A stretch of 38,756 bases of DNA, from NCBI GenBank assembly GCA_030593225.1, contig JAUVHP010000001.1, forward strand, positions 1 to 38,756, read 5' to 3'. The stretch is from an archaeon. GTDB taxonomy: Archaea; Nanobdellota; Nanobdellia; Pacearchaeales; GW2011-AR1. Below, in pieces: positions 3,183 through 30,100 of this stretch (the first letter of the stretch is position 1; each line of letters starts with the position of its first letter). The position numbers were made by a program, and so were the translations under genes. The notes beneath the pieces are model-generated. The model was given only the letters and a program-made list of their open reading frames with translations, had not been told where the DNA came from and ran no database searches.

Positions 3183-3284
3183 TTATTTTTTTTGCAAAAT
3201 TTTTACTTTGACATTTATTTTTTTTGCAAAATTTCTATACTTTATTCTATAAATTAATTTAAACTTCTTTAATATTTTTCTTTT

Positions 3285-6830: not shown

Positions 6831-9323
6831 TTATTCATTCTCCATCTCCTTCCTCTGTCTGTATTCTTCAATTCTTTTTTTGTTTGTTGGACATTCAGAG
6901 TTAAAACAAAAAAACCATGGGCGTTTGCCAAAACGTAAACTCATTAACATTGGGAAACCACATTCTTCACAAAGTTTTTCTGTTTTTTTGATTGTGCCTG
7001 GAGGAAGTGAGAAAGTTGTTTTGCAATTTGGATATGCGTCACACGCAATAAAATGTTTTCGTGTTTTTTTAGAGTAAGTTATTGCTAAATTTCCTTTTTT
7101 ACATTTTGGACACAGCACTAATTTATTTTCAATTTTTTGTTGTTCTCTTTGTTTAATATTTGCATTAAGTAATTCTTTTCCTATTTCTTTTTCATGTTTT
7201 TCAAAATCTTTTGCTATTTTTGTAATTGTTTTTTTTGCAGTGTCAATTACATTTTGTTTCTTTTTTTCTAAATCTTTTTTTGACTTGAGAATTCCTTGCA
7301 TTTTTTCTTCAAGATTTTTTGTTAATTTTTCATCTATTATAATTGGAGAGTGTTTTTCTAATGTATTTATTAGTGATATTCCAAGCGGAGTTGCTGTGAC
7401 TGATTTATCTTTTACATATCCTCTGTCGTACAATGTTTCAATAATTGACGAGCGTGTTGCTTTTGTTCCTAAATTTCTTTTTTCTAACTGCGAGATTATA
7501 GAGGCAGGGGAATATCTTTTTGGAGGTTGTGTTTCTTTTTTTTCTATTTTTTTTTCTATTATATTTACTTCCCCCTCTATATCTGGAATTTCATTTTCTT
7601 TTTGTTTTGTAGGATAAATTTCCATCCATGCTTTTTTTCTTATTGACATTCCTCTAGCATTAAAAATTAACTTTTCTTGAGTTATCACTTTCTCCCCTGT
7701 TTCTGATAATGAATTTTTTTGCCCCTCTCCCAGTCCTTTTTGCTGTGATAACTCTTTGTTTTTAATTTCAACTTCTACTGAAATTGTTTTATTATCAATA
7801 ATGGCATCATCACAAAATAAAGCTAGAAATCTTTTTACAATTAAGTTGTATATTTTTTCTTCGTTACCTGCAAAAATTCCTTCATTGCCTGTTGGATAAA
7901 TTGAAGGGTGTGCAGGGTCTGTTTTTTTACCTTCTATTGGTTTGTCTTTTGTGATTAGTTTTTGAACTTTGTATTTTTTTGCAAGTTTTTGTAAAATTGT
8001 TTTGTAATCTATTGATGAAGGTAATTTTTGTGAAGAGGTTCTGGGGTAAGAGATTGCTCCAGTTAAATAAAGTGATTGTGCTGCTTTGAGGGTATTTGAA
8101 GGAGTTATTCCGTAGAATTTGTAGGCCTCTGTTTGCAGTGTTGTTAAATTAAATGGGGGATTTGGTGGAAGAATTGTTTCTGATTTTTTTGTTTTTGCGG
8201 TTGCAGTTTTTCCAACAAGATTTTCAAATTTTTTTAATTCTTTTTCATTGAAAATATCTTTATTATGTTTAAGTTGAAGTTTATTTTTTTTATCTTCCAC
8301 AGTTATAAAAATTTGCCAATATGGAACTGATTTAAAATCTTGTATTTCTTTTTCTTTTTTTACAATTAAATTTAATGCTGGTCCTTGAACTCGTCCGATT
8401 GACATTATTCTGAATGTGCCTGTTGTTTTAATTGCGTTCATTAATGCTCGTGAAAGATTGATTCCATAAAACCAGTCAATATAATGACGAGCTTCTCCTG
8501 CTGAGGCCTGGCCCCATTCAAGATGTTTTAGTTTTTTTTCATAGGCCTTATTTAATTCATCTGGTGTAAGTGTTGAGAATTTCATTCTGCTTGCATCTTT
8601 TTGTCCGCAAATATATTTTACAATATTTGTTCCAATTACCTCGCCTTCTATATCAAAATCAGTTGCAACAGTTATACTTCCTGCGTTTTTTGCGAGTTTG
8701 ACTAATGTGTCATAATATCTTTTAGTGAAATCGTTTTTTCTTGCTAAATAATTTGGAACCCAACTAATGTCAAAAATTGGAATATGTGAGCCAGGAATGT
8801 TTTGTTTTAATGTGAACAAATGTCCTACTGCACATGCAACATATATTTTTTTGCCATTTTTATCTATTTCATAATATGGAACTTTTTGATGATTTTTTTG
8901 TGTAGGTTTTCCAAGTGCTTGTGCAATTTTCGAAGCTGCTTGAGGTTTTTCTGTAATTATTAGTTCATAGCCCTTATCTTTTAATTTTATTTTTGGAGGA
9001 ATATATTTTTTTTCTTTTGTTGTTGTTCTTTTTGAAATTCTTTTTTTTATAGTTCTTTTTTTTCTTGTTTTTCTTTTTGGATTTTCTATTTTTTCTAATT
9101 GTTTTTTAGTTGGTTTAGAATAAGTTTTTTCTACTGATTTTTTTAATATTTCTTCAATGGGTTGGGATTCTTTTATTGGAATCTCTCTTGATTTTTTTAA
9201 AATTTCTTCTTGTTGAGGTTTTCCTTTTTCTAATTTTTCTGTTGTTTTTCTTAAATTGCTTTCATCTACTGGAAAATAATTTTCAGAAGATTTTTCTTCT
9301 TTTGTTTTTTTTAGTTTTTTCAT
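6831..9323 (-). CDS. topA: DNA topoisomerase I (type IA) with Lys-rich N-terminal extension and C-terminal zinc ribbons
   Basis: Toprim region ELIITEKPQAASKIAQALG and DFDIEGEVIG. Active-site Tyr context GAISYPRTSS. C-terminal CPKC..C..C and CEEC..C..C zinc-finger motifs. Confidence 0.92.
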   Translation of the reverse strand: MKKLKKTKEEKSSENYFPVDESNLRKTTEKLEKGKPQQEEILKKSREIPIKESQPIEEILKKSVEKTYSKPTKKQLEKIENPKRKTRKKRTIKKRISKRTTTKEKKYIPPKIKLKDKGYELIITEKPQAASKIAQALGKPTQKNHQKVPYYEIDKNGKKIYVACAVGHLFTLKQNIPGSHIPIFDISWVPNYLARKNDFTKRYYDTLVKLAKNAGSITVATDFDIEGEVIGTNIVKYICGQKDASRMKFSTLTPDELNKAYEKKLKHLEWGQASAGEARHYIDWFYGINLSRALMNAIKTTGTFRIMSIGRVQGPALNLIVKKEKEIQDFKSVPYWQIFITVEDKKNKLQLKHNKDIFNEKELKKFENLVGKTATAKTKKSETILPPNPPFNLTTLQTEAYKFYGITPSNTLKAAQSLYLTGAISYPRTSSQKLPSSIDYKTILQKLAKKYKVQKLITKDKPIEGKKTDPAHPSIYPTGNEGIFAGNEEKIYNLIVKRFLALFCDDAIIDNKTISVEVEIKNKELSQQKGLGEGQKNSLSETGEKVITQEKLIFNARGMSIRKKAWMEIYPTKQKENEIPDIEGEVNIIEKKIEKKETQPPKRYSPASIISQLEKRNLGTKATRSSIIETLYDRGYVKDKSVTATPLGISLINTLEKHSPIIIDEKLTKNLEEKMQGILKSKKDLEKKKQNVIDTAKKTITKIAKDFEKHEKEIGKELLNANIKQREQQKIENKLVLCPKCKKGNLAITYSKKTRKHFIACDAYPNCKTTFSLPPGTIKKTEKLCEECGFPMLMSLRFGKRPWFFCFNSECPTNKKRIEEYRQRKEMENE

Positions 9324-10587: not shown

Positions 10588-10621
10588 GGCGGAAGCAAAG
10601 TGCCTCGTCTAAACTTCCACC

Positions 10622-10672
10622 CAAGGGTGTACCCCGAAAAATTTTTTTCAAAGATTTTTACTAAGGGCAAAA
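10622..10672 (+). repeat. Copy A of a conserved 51-nt element (copy B at 24223-24273)
   Basis: The ungapped alignment has 44 of 51 identical bases: caagggtgtacYccgaaa..tttttt.caaa....tttactaagggcaaaa. Confidence 0.6.
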
Positions 10673-10770
10673 AATAAATCAAAAAATGGGGATTGGAAAT
10701 TAGAGAAGTGGGAAATATTAAATTTTTTTGAAATCAATGGTTTTTTAAATTATTTTTAGATAGAATTGTT

Positions 10771-10786
10771 AATGGCTTCGTAGCTC
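10771..10786 (+). repeat. Exact 16-nt duplicate of the tRNA-Lys 5' end plus 3 upstream nt (aatggcttcgtagctc)
   Basis: Identical to 10873-10888. It is followed by an unusually GC-rich 86-nt spacer. Confidence 0.7.
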
Positions 10787-10875
10787 TGCTCGGAACCACG
10801 CTCGGGATTGGCAAGAAGGTTTGTCCTTCGCGTAATTCCTCGGCCTGGTCTGACCAGTCTTCGTAGTCAACAAAT

Positions 10876-10950
10876 GGCTTCGTAGCTCAGCCTGGTCAGA
10901 GCATCAGACTCTTAATCTGGGTGTCGCGGGTTCAAATCCCGTCGAGGCCA
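10876..10950 (+). tRNA. tRNA-Lys(CUU): tRNA-Lys (anticodon CUU)
   Basis: Manual cloverleaf: acceptor ggcttcg/cgaggcc, D arm gctc-agcctggtc-agagc, anticodon stem tcaga/tctgg with loop ctCTTaa, T arm gcggg-ttcaaat-cccgt, discriminator a. No encoded CCA. Confidence 0.9.
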
Positions 10951-10962
10951 TTCATTTTTAAT

Positions 10963-11286
10963 ATGGTAATCAGATTTTGTCCTACGTGCAAAGGGATTTT
11001 AATTTTGGGAAAAGAAAAAGCAGTTTGTCATAGTTGTGGTTTTGTTCAATATTCTAAAGTGGTTTTATCTTCAAATGAAAAATTACCTGAAAAAGAAGAA
11101 ATTGGCGAGGGTGCTGTTAAAGGGGAAAATGTTTTTGCGACTTATGAACATAAATGTAAAAATTGTGGGTATGATAAGGCACAAGTTATTGATTGCGGTA
11201 TTTTTTATTCTGATGAAGATAATTTGATTTTTTTAAAATGCGGTAAATGTGGAACTTCAGAACGAGTTGGTGATAAGGCTTTGTGA
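10963..11286 (+). CDS. TFS/RPB9-like double zinc-ribbon paralogue with altered catalytic loop
   Basis: N-terminal ribbon CPTC..CHSC. C-terminal ribbon CKNC..CGKC with IFYSDEDN in place of the canonical QTRSADEP. The ATG at 10963 was chosen because the tracked ORF start at 10921 lies inside the tRNA. Confidence 0.75.
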   Translation: MVIRFCPTCKGILILGKEKAVCHSCGFVQYSKVVLSSNEKLPEKEEIGEGAVKGENVFATYEHKCKNCGYDKAQVIDCGIFYSDEDNLIFLKCGKCGTSERVGDKAL

Positions 11287-11303
11287 AATTTTAATAAATT
11301 TTT

Positions 11304-11609
11304 TTAACTATAATCTCTCCAAGTTTCTTCGCATTTTATACACTTAAAGAATTTTGTTGGTGCCTCGTCTGAAGAACGTGTTTGTTGCATCCAAAAATAT
11401 GCTTTTTTATGTGAACATTTTGGACATTCTTCATCTACTATTGGGTGAATGTCTATTTTTTTTGAAATTATTGGGATTTCTTTTCTTTCGTTTATTTTTT
11501 CTATTATTTTAATATCTGCTTTTTCTTTGGAAGTATAATTGCATCTTGGACAACCTGCGTTTTTTGTTTTTTGTACTAGAATCGCTCCGCACTTTGGACA
11601 GAATAACAT
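11304..11609 (-). CDS. tfs: Transcription factor S (transcript cleavage factor)
   Basis: MLFCPKCGAIL..CPRC N-terminal ribbon. CPKC..QQTRSSDEAPTKFFKCIKC C-terminal ribbon with the acidic loop. A TATA-like tttttaaa lies about 21 nt upstream of the ATG at 11609. The longer tracked ORF to 11684 is a spurious extension. Confidence 0.9.
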   Translation of the reverse strand: MLFCPKCGAILVQKTKNAGCPRCNYTSKEKADIKIIEKINERKEIPIISKKIDIHPIVDEECPKCSHKKAYFWMQQTRSSDEAPTKFFKCIKCEETWRDYS

Positions 11610-11611
11610 AT
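11593..11611. repeat. Left attachment-site core (19 nt, tttggacagaataacatat), spanning the tfs start codon
   Basis: Identical to 20274-20292. The extended 64-nt homology 11581-11644 versus 20262-20325 has 50 of 64 identical bases, ungapped. Confidence 0.75.
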
Positions 11612-11653
11612 TGAACCTTAATAATGCGGATTTAAAAAACTTACGAAAAAAAG

Positions 11654-11812
11654 ATGGAAACAAAAAAACAAACCCAAAACCCAAAATTCAAATTTTACAG
11701 CAAAGGCGATAGAATCTATTATAAGAATTTCAATTTTAACGATGATTTTAACGAAGGTTTGCCCTATGCTGAGGAATTAATTAAAGAGGTGTTGGAAAGT
11801 GGCAAGAGATAG
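11654..11812 (+). CDS. Small hypothetical protein (52 aa) of the element
   Basis: Hand-translated ATG ORF METKKQTQNPKFKFYSKGDRIYYKNF.. that is below the ORF-track cutoff. No motif. Confidence 0.3.
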   Translation: METKKQTQNPKFKFYSKGDRIYYKNFNFNDDFNEGLPYAEELIKEVLESGKR

Positions 11813-11828
11813 CGTTAATGCCGTTAAA

Positions 11829-12020
11829 ATGGCTCATAAAAAAACAATCCTTGGGACTATTTCTAAACTTAGAAAGAAAAAACTAAGTTATTCTCAAATC
11901 GGTAGTAAATTAAGTTTAGACAAAGCCGCGGTTTACATGATTCATAAAAGAAAATGGTATCCAAAAATGCCCGATGTTGAGGGAAGAATTCTTGCAAGAA
12001 TTCAGGAGTTGAGAAAATGA
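11829..12020 (+). CDS. Small HTH DNA-binding protein
   Basis: LSYSQIGSKLSLDKAAVYMIHKRK is helix-turn-helix-like. The ATG at 11829 lies inside tracked ORF 11799..12020. Confidence 0.55.
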   Translation: MAHKKTILGTISKLRKKKLSYSQIGSKLSLDKAAVYMIHKRKWYPKMPDVEGRILARIQELRK

Positions 12021-12199
12021 GTCTTGAAGAAAAACTTATCGTATGGAAAGGGTATTATTCTGAAAAATATCATAAAAAATATTGTGCTAAAATTCCTGAA
12101 TCTAAATTTTTAGAGCTTTGGAAGAAATTTAAAAATTTTAAGGGAAGTCAAAAATATTTTTATTTTAAATATATGAATCCACAAAAAATTTTAGAATGA
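12017..12199 (+). CDS. Hypothetical protein (60 aa)
   Basis: ATGA overlap with the preceding gene. Confidence 0.45.
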   Translation: MSLEEKLIVWKGYYSEKYHKKYCAKIPESKFLELWKKFKNFKGSQKYFYFKYMNPQKILE

Positions 12200-12509
12200 A
12201 AATGAAAAAACTCTATTGTGAACTTAGTCCTTTTCAAAGATTTCTAAAATTAATAATTAACACAGAAACTAAAAAAATCGACTTAGTAACTGGAGTTAGT
12301 ATTTTGCTGAGAAGATAAAATATATTAATCGAAATTAGCGGTTAGATATTCAAATAGACTACAAATAACAAACTTACAATAGCGACGCTAATAATAAGTT
12401 TTATTAAAAATTTGATTAAAAATAATATCTTCTTAAATAAATAAATTAAGTTCGTAAGTTTAGGCTTAATTTTTCAATAGTACTAAGTCGAGTTACTAAC
12501 TCAAAAAAA

Positions 12510-12821
12510 ATGGGAAAACCAAAAAAAGATTACACAAAAACAATTAATTTCGGCAGGGTTGGAAGTCCTGCAAGAATACTTGTAGAAATGTATATTAAAG
12601 AAAATGGAAACAATAAACTTTCTAAATTAATGCAAGAATTAATTATAATTTATCTCTCAGATGACCCAAAATTTAAAGGTTGGAAAAAAGAAAAAATGAT
12701 TTTTGAAAAAAAGAAATTGGGCGAAGAAATTGTTGAGAAAGTAAAACAGCGAGAGGATTTAGATAAAAGATTTATAAAAAAATTTGGGAAAGCAGAATTC
12801 GCAAAAGCGTTTTATTCATAA
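12510..12821 (+). CDS. Hypothetical protein (103 aa)
   Basis: ORF with a charged, helical-looking sequence. It follows the AT-rich repeat-flanked region. Confidence 0.55.
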   Translation: MGKPKKDYTKTINFGRVGSPARILVEMYIKENGNNKLSKLMQELIIIYLSDDPKFKGWKKEKMIFEKKKLGEEIVEKVKQREDLDKRFIKKFGKAEFAKAFYS

Positions 12822-12845
12822 TAATTAAATTTAATGGAGGTAAAA

Positions 12846-12950
12846 ATGACAGAAGATATAACAAAAAGGTTTGAAGAACTTGAAGCAAGAGTTAAAGCTC
12901 TTGAAGAAAAGAAAGTCGAAGAACCATCAACCGCACCTGCAGTTGAGTAG
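12846..12950 (+). CDS. Small coiled-coil-like protein (34 aa)
   Basis: GGAGG lies 6 nt upstream of the ATG. Sequence MTEDITKRFEELEARVKALEEKKVEEPSTAPAVE. Confidence 0.35.
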   Translation: MTEDITKRFEELEARVKALEEKKVEEPSTAPAVE

Positions 12951-13027
12951 GGTTTTTCGCAATTTATTTTTATTATTTTATTATTTTATAGAAGACAACT
13001 TAATTAAATCAAACAGGAGGAAAAACA

Positions 13028-13276
13028 ATGGAAAGAAAACAAACACCCTTTAGATATGATGAATCCCTAGAGAAAGATATTGATGAATGTAAAAAGTGTC
13101 AAAGATGGGGAAGTAAGAAAAATCAGGCAATTATTCATGCCGTTCAAATTGCGGCACAAATCATTCGAGCATCAAAACCTAAAAAAGAAAGTAATGGATA
13201 TAGTGATTATTATAATGTTAAAGAAGCAATTGAAAAGAAGTTTAAGGTTAAAGTTGAATTGGATAGTGGATATTAA
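13028..13276 (+). CDS. Hypothetical protein (82 aa)
   Basis: AGGAGG lies upstream of the ATG. No motif. Confidence 0.5.
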   Translation: MERKQTPFRYDESLEKDIDECKKCQRWGSKKNQAIIHAVQIAAQIIRASKPKKESNGYSDYYNVKEAIEKKFKVKVELDSGY

Positions 13277-13287
13277 ATTTATTGCAA

Positions 13288-13520
13288 GATGATATCACGT
13301 TGCATGATCTAAAAAGTGATATCATTGTTCCTGGACCTGCAATAATGATATCAAAACACGATCGTGAAAAGATATCAAATTTATCTGCAGACAAAAAAGA
13401 TATCACTTCTGATCTAAAGTGATATCAAAGTGGCCGTAAAAAAAGATATCATCTGTTCCAGGAACAATGATATCAAAAGAAGATCATGAAATGATATCAG
13501 CTCCAGGTCACGATATCACA
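13288..13520. repeat. Array of ten GATATCA (mostly TGATATCA) iterons
   Basis: GATATC starts at 13291, 13318, 13347, 13371, 13399, 13421, 13445, 13469, 13493 and 13512, giving spacings of 19-29 nt. The array lies in the gap between convergent gene modules. Confidence 0.85.
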
Positions 13521-13527
13521 TTAGATT

Positions 13528-13782
13528 CTAAATTATAAAATTATATAATTTTTTTTGATAAGGAGAAATAACTTTTTTATCAGGTTGAATTTTATAATAT
13601 TTTGTAAGCTCCAAAAAAAAGTATGCTCCTGCTCCAATAAATGAAGAATAAAAAACAGCTCCTAAATTTTGAATTCCACTAAGCTGTAACGCGGTTAATG
13701 TTGAAAAAAAAGTAAATCCCCATGTGCAAAAAGCTTTAATCCCAATTGTTCTCCAAAATATTTTTTCTTCTTTACTTAACAT
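13528..13782 (-). CDS. Small membrane protein (84 aa)
   Basis: Two hydrophobic segments. The internal ATG at 13782 is preferred because it overlaps the end of the upstream small ORF. Confidence 0.55.
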   Translation of the reverse strand: MLSKEEKIFWRTIGIKAFCTWGFTFFSTLTALQLSGIQNLGAVFYSSFIGAGAYFFLELTKYYKIQPDKKVISPYQKKLYNFII

Positions 13783-13912
13783 TTTTCTTTCCCATCTCCG
13801 CTTTAATTTCAGCCTCACTAACATTCAACCTTTTCTTTAAAACCTCTAAGGTTGCTTCTATACGCTTGTTTTTCCCTCGCTGTTCTTTTGAAATCAGATT
13901 TTTTATTCTCAT
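13772..13912 (-). CDS. Small basic protein (46 aa)
   Basis: Hand-translated MRIKNLISKEQRGKNKRIEATLEVLKKRLNVSEAEIKAEMGKKNVK. ATGA overlap with the upstream fibre-like gene. Confidence 0.4.
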   Translation of the reverse strand: MRIKNLISKEQRGKNKRIEATLEVLKKRLNVSEAEIKAEMGKKNVK

Positions 13913-21839: not shown

Positions 21840-24133
21840 AAAAAAAACAAATTCAATTGAAAGTTACTGAGGCATTGCAGGACGATGTTTACAAAGGTAT
21901 TGTGAGAATTGATAATTCTATTATGAGGGAGATTGGAATTAATCGAGGAGATATTGTTTTGATTAGAGGTAATCGTGAAACTGTTGCAATGGCTGACAGG
22001 GCTTATCCTTCTGATATTGGTCAAGGAATTATTCGGATTGATGGAATTTTAAGAAGAAATGCTCGGACAGGTATTGGGGATGTTGTGGCAATTTCAAAAG
22101 CTTGTGTTAGTGAAGCAAAAAAAATTACAATTGCTCCTGCACAAAAAGGAATTATGGTTCAAGGAGAGCCAGAACATTTGAGACGAGGATTGTTGGGCCG
22201 AACTGTTGTTAAGGGAGATTTAGTTGTTTTAGGAGGTGTTCAGCGAAGGAAAGATTTATTGTCAGATGATTTTGGGGATTTGAATGATGTGCTTGGAAAT
22301 ATGTTTAATGGAATGGGGCTTGGAAATTTGGGAGGTGGAATTTCACAGATTAAGTTTAGTGTTGTTAATGTTAGTCCTACTGGTCCGATTATAATTACTG
22401 AAAAGACTGAAGTTGTTTTAAATTCAAAAGCAGTTGATATTATAGAAGATAGTATTTCTGAAATTAATTATGAAGATATTGGAGGGTTAGGTGAGGAGAT
22501 TAAAAAGATTCGTGAGATGGTTGAGATTCCTTTAAAGCATCCAGAGATTTTTGATAGACTTGGTGTTGAGCCACCAAAAGGTGTTTTGCTTCATGGTCCT
22601 CCTGGAACAGGTAAAACTTTATTAGCGAAGGCTGTTGCAAATGAATCAGAATCTAATTTTATTTTACTTAATGGTCCTGAAATTATGAGCAAGTATTATG
22701 GTGAGAGTGAGAAAAAGATAAGAGATATTTTTGCAAATGCTGAAAAAAATGCTCCGTCAATTGTTTTTATTGATGAAATTGATGCGATTGCTCCCAAGAG
22801 AGAAGAGGTGCATGGTGAGGTTGAAAGGCGTGTGGTTTCTCAAATTTTGACAATGATGGATGGGTTACAATCTCGTGGGAAAGTTGTTGTAATTGGTGCA
22901 ACAAATAGAGTTAATTCACTTGACCCTGCATTAAGAAGACCTGGAAGATTTGATAGGGAAATTGAAGTTGGAGTTCCTGATAAAAATGGGCGTCTTGCGA
23001 TTTTACAAATTCATACTCGTGGAATGCCATTGAACAAGGATGTTAATCTTAAAAATTTAGCTGGTTTGACGCACGGATTTGTTGGTGCTGATTTAGAATC
23101 TTTGTGCAAAGAGGCGGCAATGAATGTTTTGAGAAAAGTTTTGCCTCAAATAAAGCTTGACAGCGAGGAACAAATTTCTCCTGAGGTTTTGGAAAAGTTA
23201 GTTGTAAAATATAGTGATTTTATGGATTCTTTAAAAGTTGTCAGACCTTCGGCAATGAGGGAAGTTTTAGTTGAAACACCTAATATTAATTGGGATGATG
23301 TTGGAGGTATTGATGAAGTTAAAGAAGAATTAAAGGAAGCAGTTGAGTGGCCGATAAAATATCGAGATAGTTTTAAGAGAATTGGAATTAGACCTTCTAA
23401 GGGGATTTTGCTTTATGGTCCGCCTGGAACAGGTAAGACACTTTTGGCAAAGGCAGTTGCTAAAGAGAGTGAAGCGAATTTTATTCAGATTAAAGGTCCG
23501 TCGCTGTTATCTAAATGGGTGAATGATTCTCATAAAGGAATGCAGAAAGTTTTTGAAAGGGCTAGGCAGGTTGCACCTTGCATTATATTTTTTGATGAAA
23601 TTGAATCTCTTGCGTCAAAGAGAACTGTGGGTGACAATGGGTCAAGTCAAGAGGCGACAAAAGTTTTAAACCAAATGCTTGCTGAGATGGATGGGCTTGA
23701 GGATTTGAATGATGTTTTGGTTGTCGCAGCGACGAATAGACCTGATATGCTTGATACAGCTCTTTTGCGTCCAGGAAGATTTGATAGAGTGTTGCTTGTA
23801 AATGCTCCTGCTGAAGAAGGTAGAAAAATAATTTTAGATATTCATACAAAGAAAATGCCTTTGGCAAAAGATGTAAAAATTAATGAAATTGCAAGGAAAA
23901 CCGAAGGGTATACTGGTGCTGATTTGGAATCATTAACTCGTGAGGCAGGTATGCTTGCACTTAGAGAATCTATTGATTCAAAAGAGGTTTGTAAAAAACA
24001 TTTTGATGAAGCATTAATTAAAATTAAACCTAGTGTAACTAAAGCAGCGATTAGTGTTTACCAGAAGATTGAGGATAACTTTTTGCAGTCGGCAAAGGCG
24101 GCTATTATTCCTAGTGCAGGGTATTTAGGATAA
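21833..24133 (+). CDS. cdc48: Cdc48/VCP/VAT-type AAA+ ATPase (paralogue 1)
   Basis: N-domain motif, two AAA modules each with [15 protein letters not shown], Walker [10 protein letters not shown] / IIFFDEIES, and SRH RPGRFDR twice. Confidence 0.95.
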
Positions 24134-24222
24134 AATGAAAAACAAAAAACTTATAAATAAAAATATATACGCTTTGTGTATACAGAAATAAAATGGAAAA
24201 AAATGAATTAAATTTGGACACT

Positions 24223-24273
24223 CAAGGGTGTACTCCGAAACTTTTTTTACAAAAAAGTTTACTAAGGGCAAAA
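24223..24273 (+). repeat. Copy B of the conserved 51-nt element, ending at the hsp20-like start codon
   Basis: 44 of 51 bases identical to 10622-10672, ungapped. Confidence 0.6.
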
Positions 24274-28834: not shown

Positions 28835-28886
28835 GCTTTTTTAAATGAAAATTTTATTTATAAACTTTATGGAAATGATTATTCTA

Positions 28887-28930
28887 GAGTAACAAAAAAG
28901 TTTATATAATCTTTTTTTGACTTTTTTGGA
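28887..28930 (+). promoter_or_regulatory. Duplicate copy of the GT2-operon promoter, followed only by an 8-codon ORF
   Basis: 38 of 44 bases identical to 29125-29167, including gtttatataat. Confidence 0.5.
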
Positions 28931-29124
28931 GGGAATATAATGAAATTAAAGATTTATTTGAAATAAGGCAAAATAAAGAAATAGCTTATTTTACTAAAAT
29001 TAAGTATGCTTCAAGATTTTATATTGGCAAGTTTAAAATTTGTAAAAGAATAAATAGGGAAGATATTAAATTTAATTTGAAAAATATAAATCCTTTAAAG
29101 AATTCTTGAAATTTCATTGGTTTT

Positions 29125-29167
29125 GAGTAATAACAAAGTTTATATAATGATTTTATGATTTTTTTGG
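29125..29167 (+). promoter_or_regulatory. Promoter of the glycosylation operon (TATA gtttatataat about 20 nt before the ATG at 29168)
   Basis: The position and the TATA-like box were read directly. Confidence 0.55.
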
Positions 29168-30100
29168 ATGGAGTATTCAATTATAGTTCCTGTTTATAAT
29201 GAGAAAGGGAATATCACTAAGTTAGACGAAGAAATTAAGAAAGTAATGAGTCGGTCTTCTAAAGAATTTGAAATTATTTATGTGAATGATTGTTCAACTG
29301 ATGATTCTTTGGATGAGTTGAAATCTTTGAATAATGTCACAATAATTGATATGAATCGGAATTATGGGCAAACAACTGCATTAGATGTTGGATTTAAATA
29401 TGCGACAGGAAAATACATAATATCTCTTGATGGAGATGGACAAAATGATCCTAAAGACATACCTAAATTATTTAAAAAAATGAGGGAAGATAATTTAGAT
29501 GTTGTTTGTGGTTGGAGAAAGTATAGGGCAGATAAATCTGGAATTAAAATTTTAACTAAAGTAGGCAGATTTGTAAGAAGAATTTTTATTAAAGATAATG
29601 TCCATGATACAGGTTGCACCTTGAGAGTTTATAAGAAAAAGGCAGTTAAATCTCTTGATTTGCAGGGAGAAATGCATCGTTATATTATGGCTCTTTTGAG
29701 ATGGAAGGGATTTAGAATTGGAGAGGTTATTGTTAATGATAGAAAGAGGGAGAATGGAGTTTCTAAATATGGGTATTCTAAAGCAATTAGAGGATTAATT
29801 GACTTGGGTTATATTTGGTTTATCCAAAAATATTCACAAAGACCTTTACATCTGTTTGGATATTTAAGTATGTTTTTTATTTTTATTGGAGGGTTATCTT
29901 TGGGGGAATCTATTTTTGCGAGAATTTTTTGGGAAACATCTTTGAACAGAAATGGTTTTTTCTTTTTGGGATTTTTCTTTATTATGATGGCTGTCATGTT
30001 TATGTGCTTTGGAATAATTATTGATTTGTTAATTAAAATACAATTACAAACATCATCTCATGAAAAAAGATATTATGTTCGTAAGATTATTAAAAAATGA
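29168..30100 (+). CDS. GT2 polyprenyl-phosphate glycosyltransferase (GtrB/ArnC/DPM1-like) with two C-terminal TM helices
   Basis: SIIVPVYNE, NDCSTDDS and DGDGQNDP motifs, plus a C-terminal hydrophobic pair. Confidence 0.9.
   Translation: MEYSIIVPVYNEKGNITKLDEEIKKVMSRSSKEFEIIYVNDCSTDDSLDELKSLNNVTIIDMNRNYGQTTALDVGFKYATGKYIISLDGDGQNDPKDIPKLFKKMREDNLDVVCGWRKYRADKSGIKILTKVGRFVRRIFIKDNVHDTGCTLRVYKKKAVKSLDLQGEMHRYIMALLRWKGFRIGEVIVNDRKRENGVSKYGYSKAIRGLIDLGYIWFIQKYSQRPLHLFGYLSMFFIFIGGLSLGESIFARIFWETSLNRNGFFFLGFFFIMMAVMFMCFGIIIDLLIKIQLQTSSHEKRYYVRKIIKK

Follow-up and report, generated by a model that had tools for sequence, protein, structure and literature searches.

Integration of a double jelly-roll provirus at the start of an archaeal transcription factor S gene, with apparent replacement of the native promoter

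Results

The locus

The window considered here, that is, the whole stretch of 38,756 nt analysed from a Pacearchaeales archaeon, contains an insert of ~8.68 kb that lies between a signal peptidase gene and tfs, the gene for transcription factor S (TFS), and that is bounded by a short direct repeat covering the tfs start codon. The reading developed below, to which a probability of roughly 0.85 is assigned, is that this insert is a provirus that has integrated at the start of tfs by means of its own integrase, and that a virus-borne promoter has thereby replaced the native one. An original prediction, made from the sequence before any database was searched, had proposed both the integration and the promoter replacement, and had gone on to suggest that tfs has come under virus-borne control.

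The integration target, tfs (11304-11609, minus strand), is intact and encodes a protein of 101 amino acids (aa) that matches Pfam Zn_ribbon_TFIIS (2.5e-17) and TIGR01384, TFS_arch (84.8 bits against a cutoff of 64.75); both zinc ribbons (four Cys pairs) and the acidic SDE loop, within QTRSSDE, are visible in the alignment. On the far side of the insert lies the gene for a signal peptidase I of the archaeal/Sec11 type (20335-20955, minus strand; 206 aa), which scores 80.5 bits against a cutoff of 51.85 for TIGR02228 and matches SEC11A/C chains at 1e-9. An exact-protein look-up returned no record for this signal peptidase, and none for the 52-aa open reading frame (ORF) at the left end of the insert. 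The only tRNA gene in the window, tRNA-Lys at 10875-10951 (Rfam gathering threshold), lies 0.6 kb off and away from the junction; in other words, the integration target is a protein gene and not a tRNA gene.

The insert consists of positions 11612-20273 plus one copy of the repeat core described below, and measures 8,681 nt from the start of the left attachment site (attL) to the start of the right one (attR). Near its right end is the gene for a tyrosine integrase (19236-20012, minus strand; 258 aa), which matches PF00589, Phage_integrase (3.5e-13; 50.1 bits against a cutoff of 27.1), as well as phrog_216 (integrase), and whose catalytic residues R59, K86, H170, R173, H196 and Y207 are conserved across its clade. 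This gene is intact and unsplit by the integration and the element is, therefore, not of the 'suicidal' SSV/pTN3 type. The att core lies 262 nt beyond the integrase start codon; in between is a 53-aa ORF (20081-20242, plus strand; from the ORF list), which had no family match in the scan and for which a role in excision or regulation is a guess. A small ORF (55 aa, 52 aa) occupies the same place in the related proviruses L002, L052 and L061.

To the left of the integrase gene is the gene for a P-loop ATPase (18486-19031, plus strand; 181 aa), a putative packaging ATPase of the FtsK/HerA (A32-like) type: it matches phrog_2666, 'terminase large subunit' (6.8e-15), and, weakly and under the Pfam cutoffs, AAA_14 and DUF87/HerA, and it is 72-74% identical in related proviruses. 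Next comes a putative provirus regulator of 253 aa (17641-18402, minus strand) with an N-terminal winged-helix/helix-turn-helix (HTH) domain, for which the Pfam matches (HTH_24, HTH_AsnC and HTH_11) are all weak, the PHROG match (transcriptional regulator) is at 5e-7, and conservation extends to related proviruses. The major capsid protein (16286-17122, minus strand; 278 aa) has no family match of its own and none of the 19 homologues collected is annotated; its assignment comes from an AlphaFold2 model (predicted local distance difference test, pLDDT, 89.8; predicted template modelling score, pTM, 0.85) that was compared with the PDB by Foldseek. The matches, all with a probability of 1.00, include PRD1 P3 (E 9e-13), the STIV major capsid protein (template modelling score 0.71), PM2 P2 and PBCV-1 Vp54. 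This double jelly-roll fold identifies the insert as a provirus whose capsid belongs to the PRD1/STIV lineage. The capsid gene is followed downstream (13909-16219, minus strand) by the structural-module genes p124 (15845-16219), p155, p186 and p318 (13909-14865), whose order is kept in related proviruses; tblastn in L002, L052 and L054 finds p124 at 64-69% identity and p318 at 39%. By its position, p124, which matches no Pfam or PHROG family, is a candidate for a single jelly-roll penton protein. The left-hand part of the insert (11654-13276, plus strand; ORF list) holds small ORFs of 52, 73, 60, 40, 103 and 82 aa, of which the four that were scanned (52, 73, 103 and 82 aa) gave no Pfam or PHROG match. 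Among all provirus proteins scanned, only three had such a match, namely the integrase, the ATPase and the HTH protein.

The view of the insert as a provirus is thus borne out by the unsplit tyrosine integrase, the putative packaging ATPase and the double jelly-roll fold of the capsid protein, which together mark the element, as far as a modelled capsid fold allows, as a temperate, tailless double jelly-roll virus of a Pacearchaeota/Woesearchaeota-like DPANN host. The insert also contains an exact 26-nt repeat, CTTTATATAAAAATGTGGCGTTAAAA (17461-17486 and 18419-18444), within a 56-nt repeat of 79% identity; its copies lie just upstream of two minus-strand provirus genes that start at 17442 and 18402, and it is probably a viral promoter or operator.

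Attachment sites

A repeat search of the window yields a two-copy direct-repeat family, 11577-11644 and 20258-20325, of 68 nt and 78% identity (53 of 68 positions in a gap-free count). For the slightly shorter span 11581-11644 versus 20262-20325, the original prediction had claimed a gap-free homology of 50 identities over 64 nt, and a recount gives exactly this number. The left copy, attL (11577-11644), is composed of tfs codons, an exact 19-nt core and the element-derived promoter arm; in the right copy, attR (20258-20325), element DNA that resembles tfs codons 7-11 is followed by the core and then by the original promoter of tfs. The core does cover the tfs start codon, as had been predicted, although the coordinate has to be corrected: the ATG is the reverse complement of 11607-11609, and the core spans -2 to +17 relative to tfs.

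The core, TTTGGACAGAATAACATAT, occurs at 11593-11611 and, as an exact match, at 20274-20292, and nowhere else in the window even with up to three mismatches. None of 100 dinucleotide-preserving shuffles contained two matches to it. When the window was simulated 200 times with a first-order Markov model, 5 of the sequences contained an exact 19-mer direct repeat with a complexity comparable to that of the core, and ~10% of the simulated sequences contained an exact 19-mer of some kind, mostly of low complexity. By itself, then, the 19-nt core is only moderately improbable; what settles its reading as an attachment site is the flanking homology and the comparative data.

The flanking homology includes a 14-nt block, TTTAAAAAACTTAC, which is found without a mismatch at 11631-11644 and at 20312-20325 and nowhere else in the window. 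Given no more than these two copies, the idea that the block stems from a dispersed promoter repeat was rejected. Likewise, scans of the window for the core, for the block and for the spacer of the left-hand arm found two copies each of the first two and a single copy of the third, so that the repeat is not a dispersed one. Behind the promoter at the right end there remains a stub of tfs, whose existence had been predicted but whose length had been given as 10 codons; it is in fact a 14-codon ORF (20246-20290, minus strand; MLFCPKCGAILIFF followed by a stop codon), residues 1-11 of which equal those of TFS. The end of the stub overlaps a run of seven Ts (T7; 20248-20254), which would be a plausible archaeal terminator.

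Empty sites in related genomes

An alignment of the signal peptidase was scanned against one genome per GTDB species, which gave 46 loci, all of them in metagenome-assembled genomes of Pacearchaeota, Woesearchaeota or Nanoarchaeota. As determined by tblastn, the shared gene order is cdc48, signal peptidase, tfs, (a second tfs-like gene) and a metallophosphoesterase. At about 38 of the 46 loci tfs follows the signal peptidase gene on the same strand after a gap of 40-130 nt; that is, there are uninterrupted relatives in which the signal peptidase gene leads directly to tfs, as expected for an insertion into the tfs 5' end.

The second tfs-like gene in this order corresponds within the window to a gene for a TFS/RPB9-like zinc-ribbon protein of 107 aa (10963-11286, plus strand), which is tail-to-tail with tfs. 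Its product is 30% identical to TFS, scores 33 bits against TIGR01384 (under the cutoff of 64.75) and has an SDED stretch at the position of the TFS acidic loop. Orthologues of ~50% identity adjoin tfs in L008, L014, L026, L029 and L037, and the L005 orthologue is 76% identical.

The closest relative, L005 (signal peptidase 88% and TFS 90% identical to those of the window), has an empty site, and its layout agrees with the one predicted: the signal-peptidase stop codon, 7 nt, GTAAGTTTTTTAAA, a 21-nt spacer and the ATG. Comparison with this site reveals a reciprocal pattern. Over the promoter arm (-35 to -3), the attR side matches L005 at 30 of 33 positions and the attL side at 21 of 33, 14 of which are accounted for by the block that, as described below, constitutes the B recognition element (BRE) and TATA box; at the 19 remaining positions, the viral arm matches L005 at 7 and the native arm at 16. 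Over the body of tfs (+18 to +60) it is the attL side that matches (42 of 43, versus 19 of 43 on the attR side). Empty and occupied sites thus correspond with base precision, and the pattern of the arms is the one expected for a crossover inside the 19-nt core, so that 11612-11644, the promoter that tfs now has before it, comes from the element. The possibility that relatives would instead show the 11612-11644 version as the native one was checked in L005, where the native promoter matches 20293-20325; this also confirms that the original promoter is to be found at the right end, beside the signal peptidase gene.

Conservation across 40 species-level genomes is concentrated at the targeted end of the gene. 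Positions +1 to +23 of tfs, which contain the codons for MEFCPKCG of the N-terminal zinc ribbon, are conserved at 91% of nucleotides, as compared with 74-79% further into the gene and ~50% upstream of it. Because its first 23 nt are conserved to this degree between species, tfs offers a stable and widespread target, much as a tRNA gene does.

Promoter geometry

TATA positions were measured directly, scanners for sigma-70 promoters being inapplicable to archaea. Relative to the ATG, TATA-like hexamers show a sharp maximum at -29 to -27: 18 of 42 tfs orthologues have such a hexamer within this 3-nt interval, and the 32 ORFs of at least 120 aa in the window yield 16 TATA-like matches, as against 6.6% of random positions with a match anywhere in the whole -36 to -24 interval. 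A TATA box at this spacing is the geometry of leaderless archaeal mRNAs, which, to judge from these positions, the lineage appears to make, with TATA ~27-29 nt before the ATG. Given such leaderless mRNAs, a correctly spaced BRE/TATA of ~14 nt should suffice for the expression of tfs.

Both arms have this geometry. In the element-supplied arm (11612-11644, minus strand) the BRE/TATA occupies 11631-11644 (GTAAGTTTTTTAAA on the tfs strand), with TTTAAA from -27, and is followed by a diverged spacer. In the native tfs promoter (20293-20325, minus strand), which is now cut off from tfs, it occupies 20312-20325 and lies 9 nt from the signal-peptidase stop codon. The block is identical at 14 of 14 positions in the two arms and has the same spacing; in the native arm, the viral arm and L005 alike, TTTAAA starts at -27 and is preceded by the same GTAAG, and many relatives have (A/G)AAGTTTTTAAA at the BRE/TATA position before tfs. 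No second copy of the viral-arm spacer occurs in the window, and an operator shared between this arm and other provirus promoters was accordingly rejected.

Elsewhere in the window there are short intergenic repeats with TATA-like motifs (28878-28938 and 29116-29176; 1669-1691, 3184-3206 and 3216-3238). These sequences, AAAGTTTATATAA and TATTTTTTTTGCAAAATTTC, are probably repeated promoters.

Related proviruses

Within a collection of 5.8 billion proteins the clade of the integrase has only five other members, which are 57-63% identical to it. One of these belongs to a diverged provirus that lies between the signal peptidase gene and tfs of another genome, on a 298-kb contig (L002; GCA_963986765.1); its integrase is 63%, its ATPase 72%, its major capsid protein 68% and its p124 64% identical to those of the window element. 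This provirus has its own 90-nt repeat, with an exact core of 30 nt that consists of the ATG plus 27 nt of tfs. A second member is encoded on a 9.7-kb contig with an unrelated backbone (L003; integrase 61% identical). About 400 nt from this integrase gene there is a TATA box, a spacer and ATG GAA TTT TGT CCA AAG TGT GGC TAA (8300-8380), that is, the ATG plus seven tfs codons, flanked on both sides by element-type ORFs; by its sequence, this site looks like a viral attachment site (attP). Its 23-nt core is identical to the start of tfs in four other genomes. The L003 stub reads away from the integrase gene into an operon of small ORFs, an orientation opposite to that in the window and in L002. 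A further member (L004; integrase 57%) is separated by 480 nt from the end of its contig, and nothing resembling a tfs stub can be seen there. The recurrence of tfs-type sites in L002 and L003 indicates that the targeting of tfs is a property of the integrase clade rather than an accident of one genome.

Proviruses that have the same structural module but other integrases (24-30% identical) occupy other sites. In two Pacearchaeota genomes (L052 and L062) the site of the provirus is the oapC start codon (PF09845, origin-associated protein C), with an exact 23-nt core that begins at the ATG (6992-7014 and 15447-15469 in L052; 6971-6993 and 15398-15420 in L062). The upstream arms of these two proviruses are non-homologous and each arm nevertheless has a TATA box at -27 or -29. 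Two other family members have one end directly before a tRNA gene, on its 5' side, namely tRNA-Ser (L054, 7868-7949) and tRNA-Asp (L064, 5850-5923), the second att copy being lost in each case at a contig end. From the oapC sites and the sites on the 5' side of tRNA genes, it follows that integration at the 5' ends of genes is general in the group, whose members must bring promoters with them. A search of IMG/VR with the 19-nt core, the capsid alignment, the integrase-clade alignment and a degenerate tfs-start pattern returned nothing, and no terminal overlap, as a sign of circularity, was seen in L056, L058, L059 or L003.

Site occupancy

Two Logan contigs, both from run SRR18936876, match the window without a mismatch. 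The first (L001) extends from 10646 to 11611, which is the final base of the left core. The second (L065) covers 18696-20303, and so spans the junction between element and core and stops 11 nt past the core, that is, at 20273 + 30. Logan assembles with k = 31. The ends at 11611 and 20303 are the branch points expected in a de Bruijn graph at this k, and they fit the coexistence of attL and attR with the empty host site (attB), which would be composed of the tfs body, the core and the native promoter. On this indirect evidence, one sample seems to contain both occupied and empty sites, with the same tfs coding sequence in each; it is unlikely that two ends would agree to the base by accident.

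The ends of two GTDB contigs, L022 (5524-5558) and L049 (8462-8513), fall within tfs, after 35 and 51 nt of the gene, respectively. These may be assembly breaks at polymorphic insertions into the same site in other populations, although this is only suggestive.

Other features of the window

Upstream of tRNA-Lys is a stretch of ~100 nt (10771-10872) whose first 15-16 nt are shared with the tRNA-Lys 5' end (AATGGCTTCGTAGCTC at 10771 and 10873). This stretch is conserved with few substitutions in L005 (7520-7416, minus strand), matches no Rfam family and is not called by ARAGORN; its possible identities are a structured RNA that is co-transcribed, an element derived from a tRNA and the remnant of an old att site. 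An intergenic direct repeat of 55 nt and 85% identity, CACCCAAGGGTGTACCCCGAAA...TTTACTAAGGGCAAAA, has its two copies 13.6 kb apart (10618-10672 and 24219-24273), and the Logan contig L001 ends inside the first of them. Finally, the window contains tandem paralogues of a Cdc48/VCP-type AAA+ ATPase (21833-24133 and ~24.6-27 kb), ~47% identical to each other, in an arrangement that is kept in relatives; these two genes account for the 300-nt, four-copy repeat family D1.

Discussion

The proposed mechanism is as follows. The tyrosine integrase of the provirus would recombine viral attP with a host attB that spans the tfs 5' end, attP being a diverged copy, of ~68 nt, of the host tfs 5' region (BRE/TATA, 21-nt spacer, ATG and ~11 codons). 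Strand exchange would take place within the 19 identical base pairs from -2 to +17 of the tfs ATG, the point of crossover being inferred. Integration would thus sever the native promoter from tfs and leave it at attR, where it would drive only the 14-codon stub and make a short transcript ending in the T7 tract at 20248-20254; at attL, the virus-borne BRE/TATA would be placed before an unchanged tfs coding sequence, which would be transcribed as a leaderless mRNA.

Several points weigh against this reading or limit its reach. The activity of either promoter is deduced solely from sequence and position, and the viral spacer between TATA and ATG is largely different, so that the level or regulation of tfs expression could differ from the native one. 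The habit of integrating at tfs is documented by three elements, in a clade of six integrases among 5.8 billion proteins, and for L002, whose closest relatives are at most 78% identical in nucleotide sequence and whose intergenic DNA is therefore not comparable, the assignment of the arms relies on recombination logic alone. No attP junction or circular form of the window element was found, and IMG/VR holds no related entries; within run SRR18936876 attP appears to have been undetectable, since with a comparable coverage of attP the contig L065 would have stopped at 20292, past which it runs. The argument for mixed occupancy is drawn from contig termini and a Logan k of 31, not from reads.

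Among the alternatives, the one that survives best is that of regulatory capture, that is, that integration puts tfs under lysogeny-dependent control, either through a viral regulator acting within the new spacer or through a promoter swap that drives provirus genes, in which case the level of TFS, and hence the proofreading and restart of RNA polymerase, would track the state of the provirus. The 19-nt viral spacer is indeed unrelated to the native one (7 versus 16 of 19 matches to L005), an HTH protein is among the products of the provirus, the integration leaves the native tfs promoter directed into the provirus towards the integrase gene, and in L003 the tfs-like promoter and stub run straight into an operon of element ORFs. 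There are precedents as well: integrative and conjugative elements (ICEs) of Streptococcus and SpyCI at gene 5' ends have been discussed as expression switches (PMC4701971), and an interplay between viruses and TFS is known for TFS4 (PMC5715097). The latter had been invoked in the original prediction and is real, but no link was found between the window tfs and inhibition of the TFS4 type, its product being a canonical TFS and not a TFS4-like inhibitor. Moreover, the viral spacer shares no motif with other intergenic regions of the provirus, and the T7 run in the stub would limit read-through into it. A BRE/TATA that is identical at 14 of 14 positions and identically spaced argues for faithful replacement rather than new control. 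Regulatory capture is, in view of all this, unlikely, and the predicted 'virus-borne control' of tfs is correct only if taken literally, in that the DNA of the promoter derives from the element; altered regulation finds no support. Simple promoter replacement is, on the sequence evidence, the better reading than a hijacking of TFS regulation. The unbroken coding sequence of the target gene and the consensus BRE/TATA provided in front of it argue against its inactivation, as in the comK and mutL-SpyCI switches, where excision restores expression.

Somewhat less probable again is the view that the 14-nt block and the extended homology have been kept as a recombination site (an arm-type or accessory site for the integrase or for a host architectural protein) and not as a promoter. 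The att sites of tyrosine recombinases often reach beyond the crossover core, those of archaea can be long (29-69 bp for crenarchaeal elements; PMC6563490), and it is the block that is exactly conserved and the spacer that is not. This view fails, however, to account for the arms of other elements: in L052 and L062 the element and host upstream arms are without homology and yet both have TATA at -27 or -29, and in L002 and L003 the arms differ in sequence around a TATA box of constant position. The block also fits the BRE/TATA consensus found before tfs in many uninterrupted genomes, as well as the genome-wide TATA position. A promoter function is favoured over integrase binding, therefore, because the block is kept while the spacer differs and because the oapC arms are non-homologous yet bear TATA boxes, though the block may serve both in transcription and in recombination.

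Still harder to sustain is the notion that the insert is a fixed, defective remnant and its att repeat a fossil that has no present function. It is true that no attP or free form of the window element was recovered and that the att arms have diverged to 78% identity. Yet every gene of the conserved module has kept its full-length ORF, the two copies of the core do not differ at any position, and the contig ends in SRR18936876 fit coexisting occupied and empty sites. The divergence of the arms, moreover, reflects the difference between attP and attB at the time of integration and not decay, given that the host-side arms match L005 at 30 of 33 and 42 of 43 positions. Last, an artefact or chance repeat (a chimera of the assembly joined at a short repeat, a widespread promoter motif or a homologous recombination in which the integrase had no part), which an AT-rich genome with many low-complexity repeats and exact 19-mers in ~10% of simulations might bring to mind, is effectively refuted by the presence of only two, non-dispersed copies, by an independent Logan contig that spans the attR junction (L065), by the same architecture on the independent 298-kb contig of another genome (L002), by the integrase gene adjoining attR and by empty sites that are precise to the base.

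Promoter replacement by integration at tfs may be viewed within a broader and more speculative scheme, in which small DPANN double jelly-roll viruses integrate as a rule at first codons (tfs, oapC and the 5' side of tRNA genes) with a reciprocal swap of promoters, the host gene obtaining a virus-borne BRE/TATA and the host promoter pointing into the provirus (to the integrase side here, and to the element operon in L003). This scheme is doubtful as it stands. If true, it would couple the supply of an RNA-polymerase cleavage factor to the lysogenic state and the expression of the provirus to a housekeeping promoter, thus forming a two-way link between virus and host transcription machinery.

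Whatever the merit of this scheme, the analysis has a number of implications. It describes a type of archaeal attachment site that is new as far as the literature consulted shows, namely the start of a protein gene, with a replacement promoter carried in attP; this mode of integration is rare, but the present case is well supported and recurs in independent elements. It reveals an unannotated group of ~8-kb double jelly-roll proviruses, absent from IMG/VR, in Pacearchaeota/Woesearchaeota-like DPANN, hosts for which few viruses are known. Inasmuch as lysogens and non-lysogens with the same tfs coding sequence but different promoters appear to coexist, it also points to a natural experiment on the neutrality of promoter replacement. 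And it provides a search signature (a short duplicated gene start with a TATA box beside an integrase gene) for proviruses that are missed by tRNA-based att finders.

Comparison with known systems

Archaeal integrating elements have been described at tRNA genes, in intergenic regions and at the 3' ends of protein genes (PMC8371274, PMC6563490), and conservation is the rationale usually given for tRNA genes as targets (PMC8371274). In classical integration at a tRNA 3' end, as here, a copy within attP of a conserved part of the host gene rebuilds that gene; no promoter is needed from the element in that case, however, whereas the window element must bring a whole promoter. Archaeal elements that target protein genes (the integrated mobile genetic elements of Thaumarchaeota, BJ1 and Msmi-Pro1) likewise rely on a tyrosine recombinase, use a protein gene as attB and replace the displaced end. 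The protein-gene targets of the thaumarchaeal elements are in 3'-distal regions in 14 of 14 cases (PMC6563490), and one of these elements, NitEve-E2, supplies a new stop codon for the displaced gene end (PMC6563490; PMC8371274). They differ from the window element in that neither of these two papers describes a case at a 5' end or with a replacement promoter.

For integration at protein-gene 5' ends the likeness is to bacteria. A minority of Streptococcus ICEs (7 of 73) are at the 5' ends of ftsK, rbgA and ebfC, and SpyCI acts as a switch at the mutL 5' end; the repeats of such ICEs overlap the upstream region, of which 15-64 bp are sometimes preserved, the promoter being otherwise replaced (PMC4701971). 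These elements share with the window element a site-specific tyrosine integrase that acts on a protein gene of essential or housekeeping function, at the 5' end, where the gene is conserved. They are, however, bacterial conjugative elements and satellites that involve sigma-70 promoters, as opposed to an archaeal virus with a BRE/TATA at leaderless spacing, and SpyCI blocks the expression of its target, whereas the window element, on the evidence of its sequence, would restore a promoter.

Within archaea the nearest counterpart is the pTN3/TKV4/MVV type of Thermococcales and Methanococcales, which recombines with the 5' half of a tRNA gene, the tRNA being then 'expressed from the integrase promoter' (PMC8371274), and of which TKV4 and MVV are small proviruses with double jelly-roll capsids (PMC5894146). 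In both systems the 5' part of a gene is targeted, an uninterrupted copy is restored and expression proceeds, or would proceed, from element DNA, and sister proviruses of the window element are themselves found on the 5' side of tRNA genes. The differences are that the target here is a protein gene, with a core that includes the start codon, and that the host belongs to DPANN; that the integrase gene is intact and ~260 nt from the att site, unlike the SSV 'suicidal' arrangement with att inside int; and that the element supplies a copy of the host BRE/TATA rather than the int promoter. Hence, although 5'-end targeting itself is known, what is new, on the literature consulted, is its extension to protein genes in the archaeal domain, the choice of tfs as the target and the unannotated group of viruses to which the element belongs.

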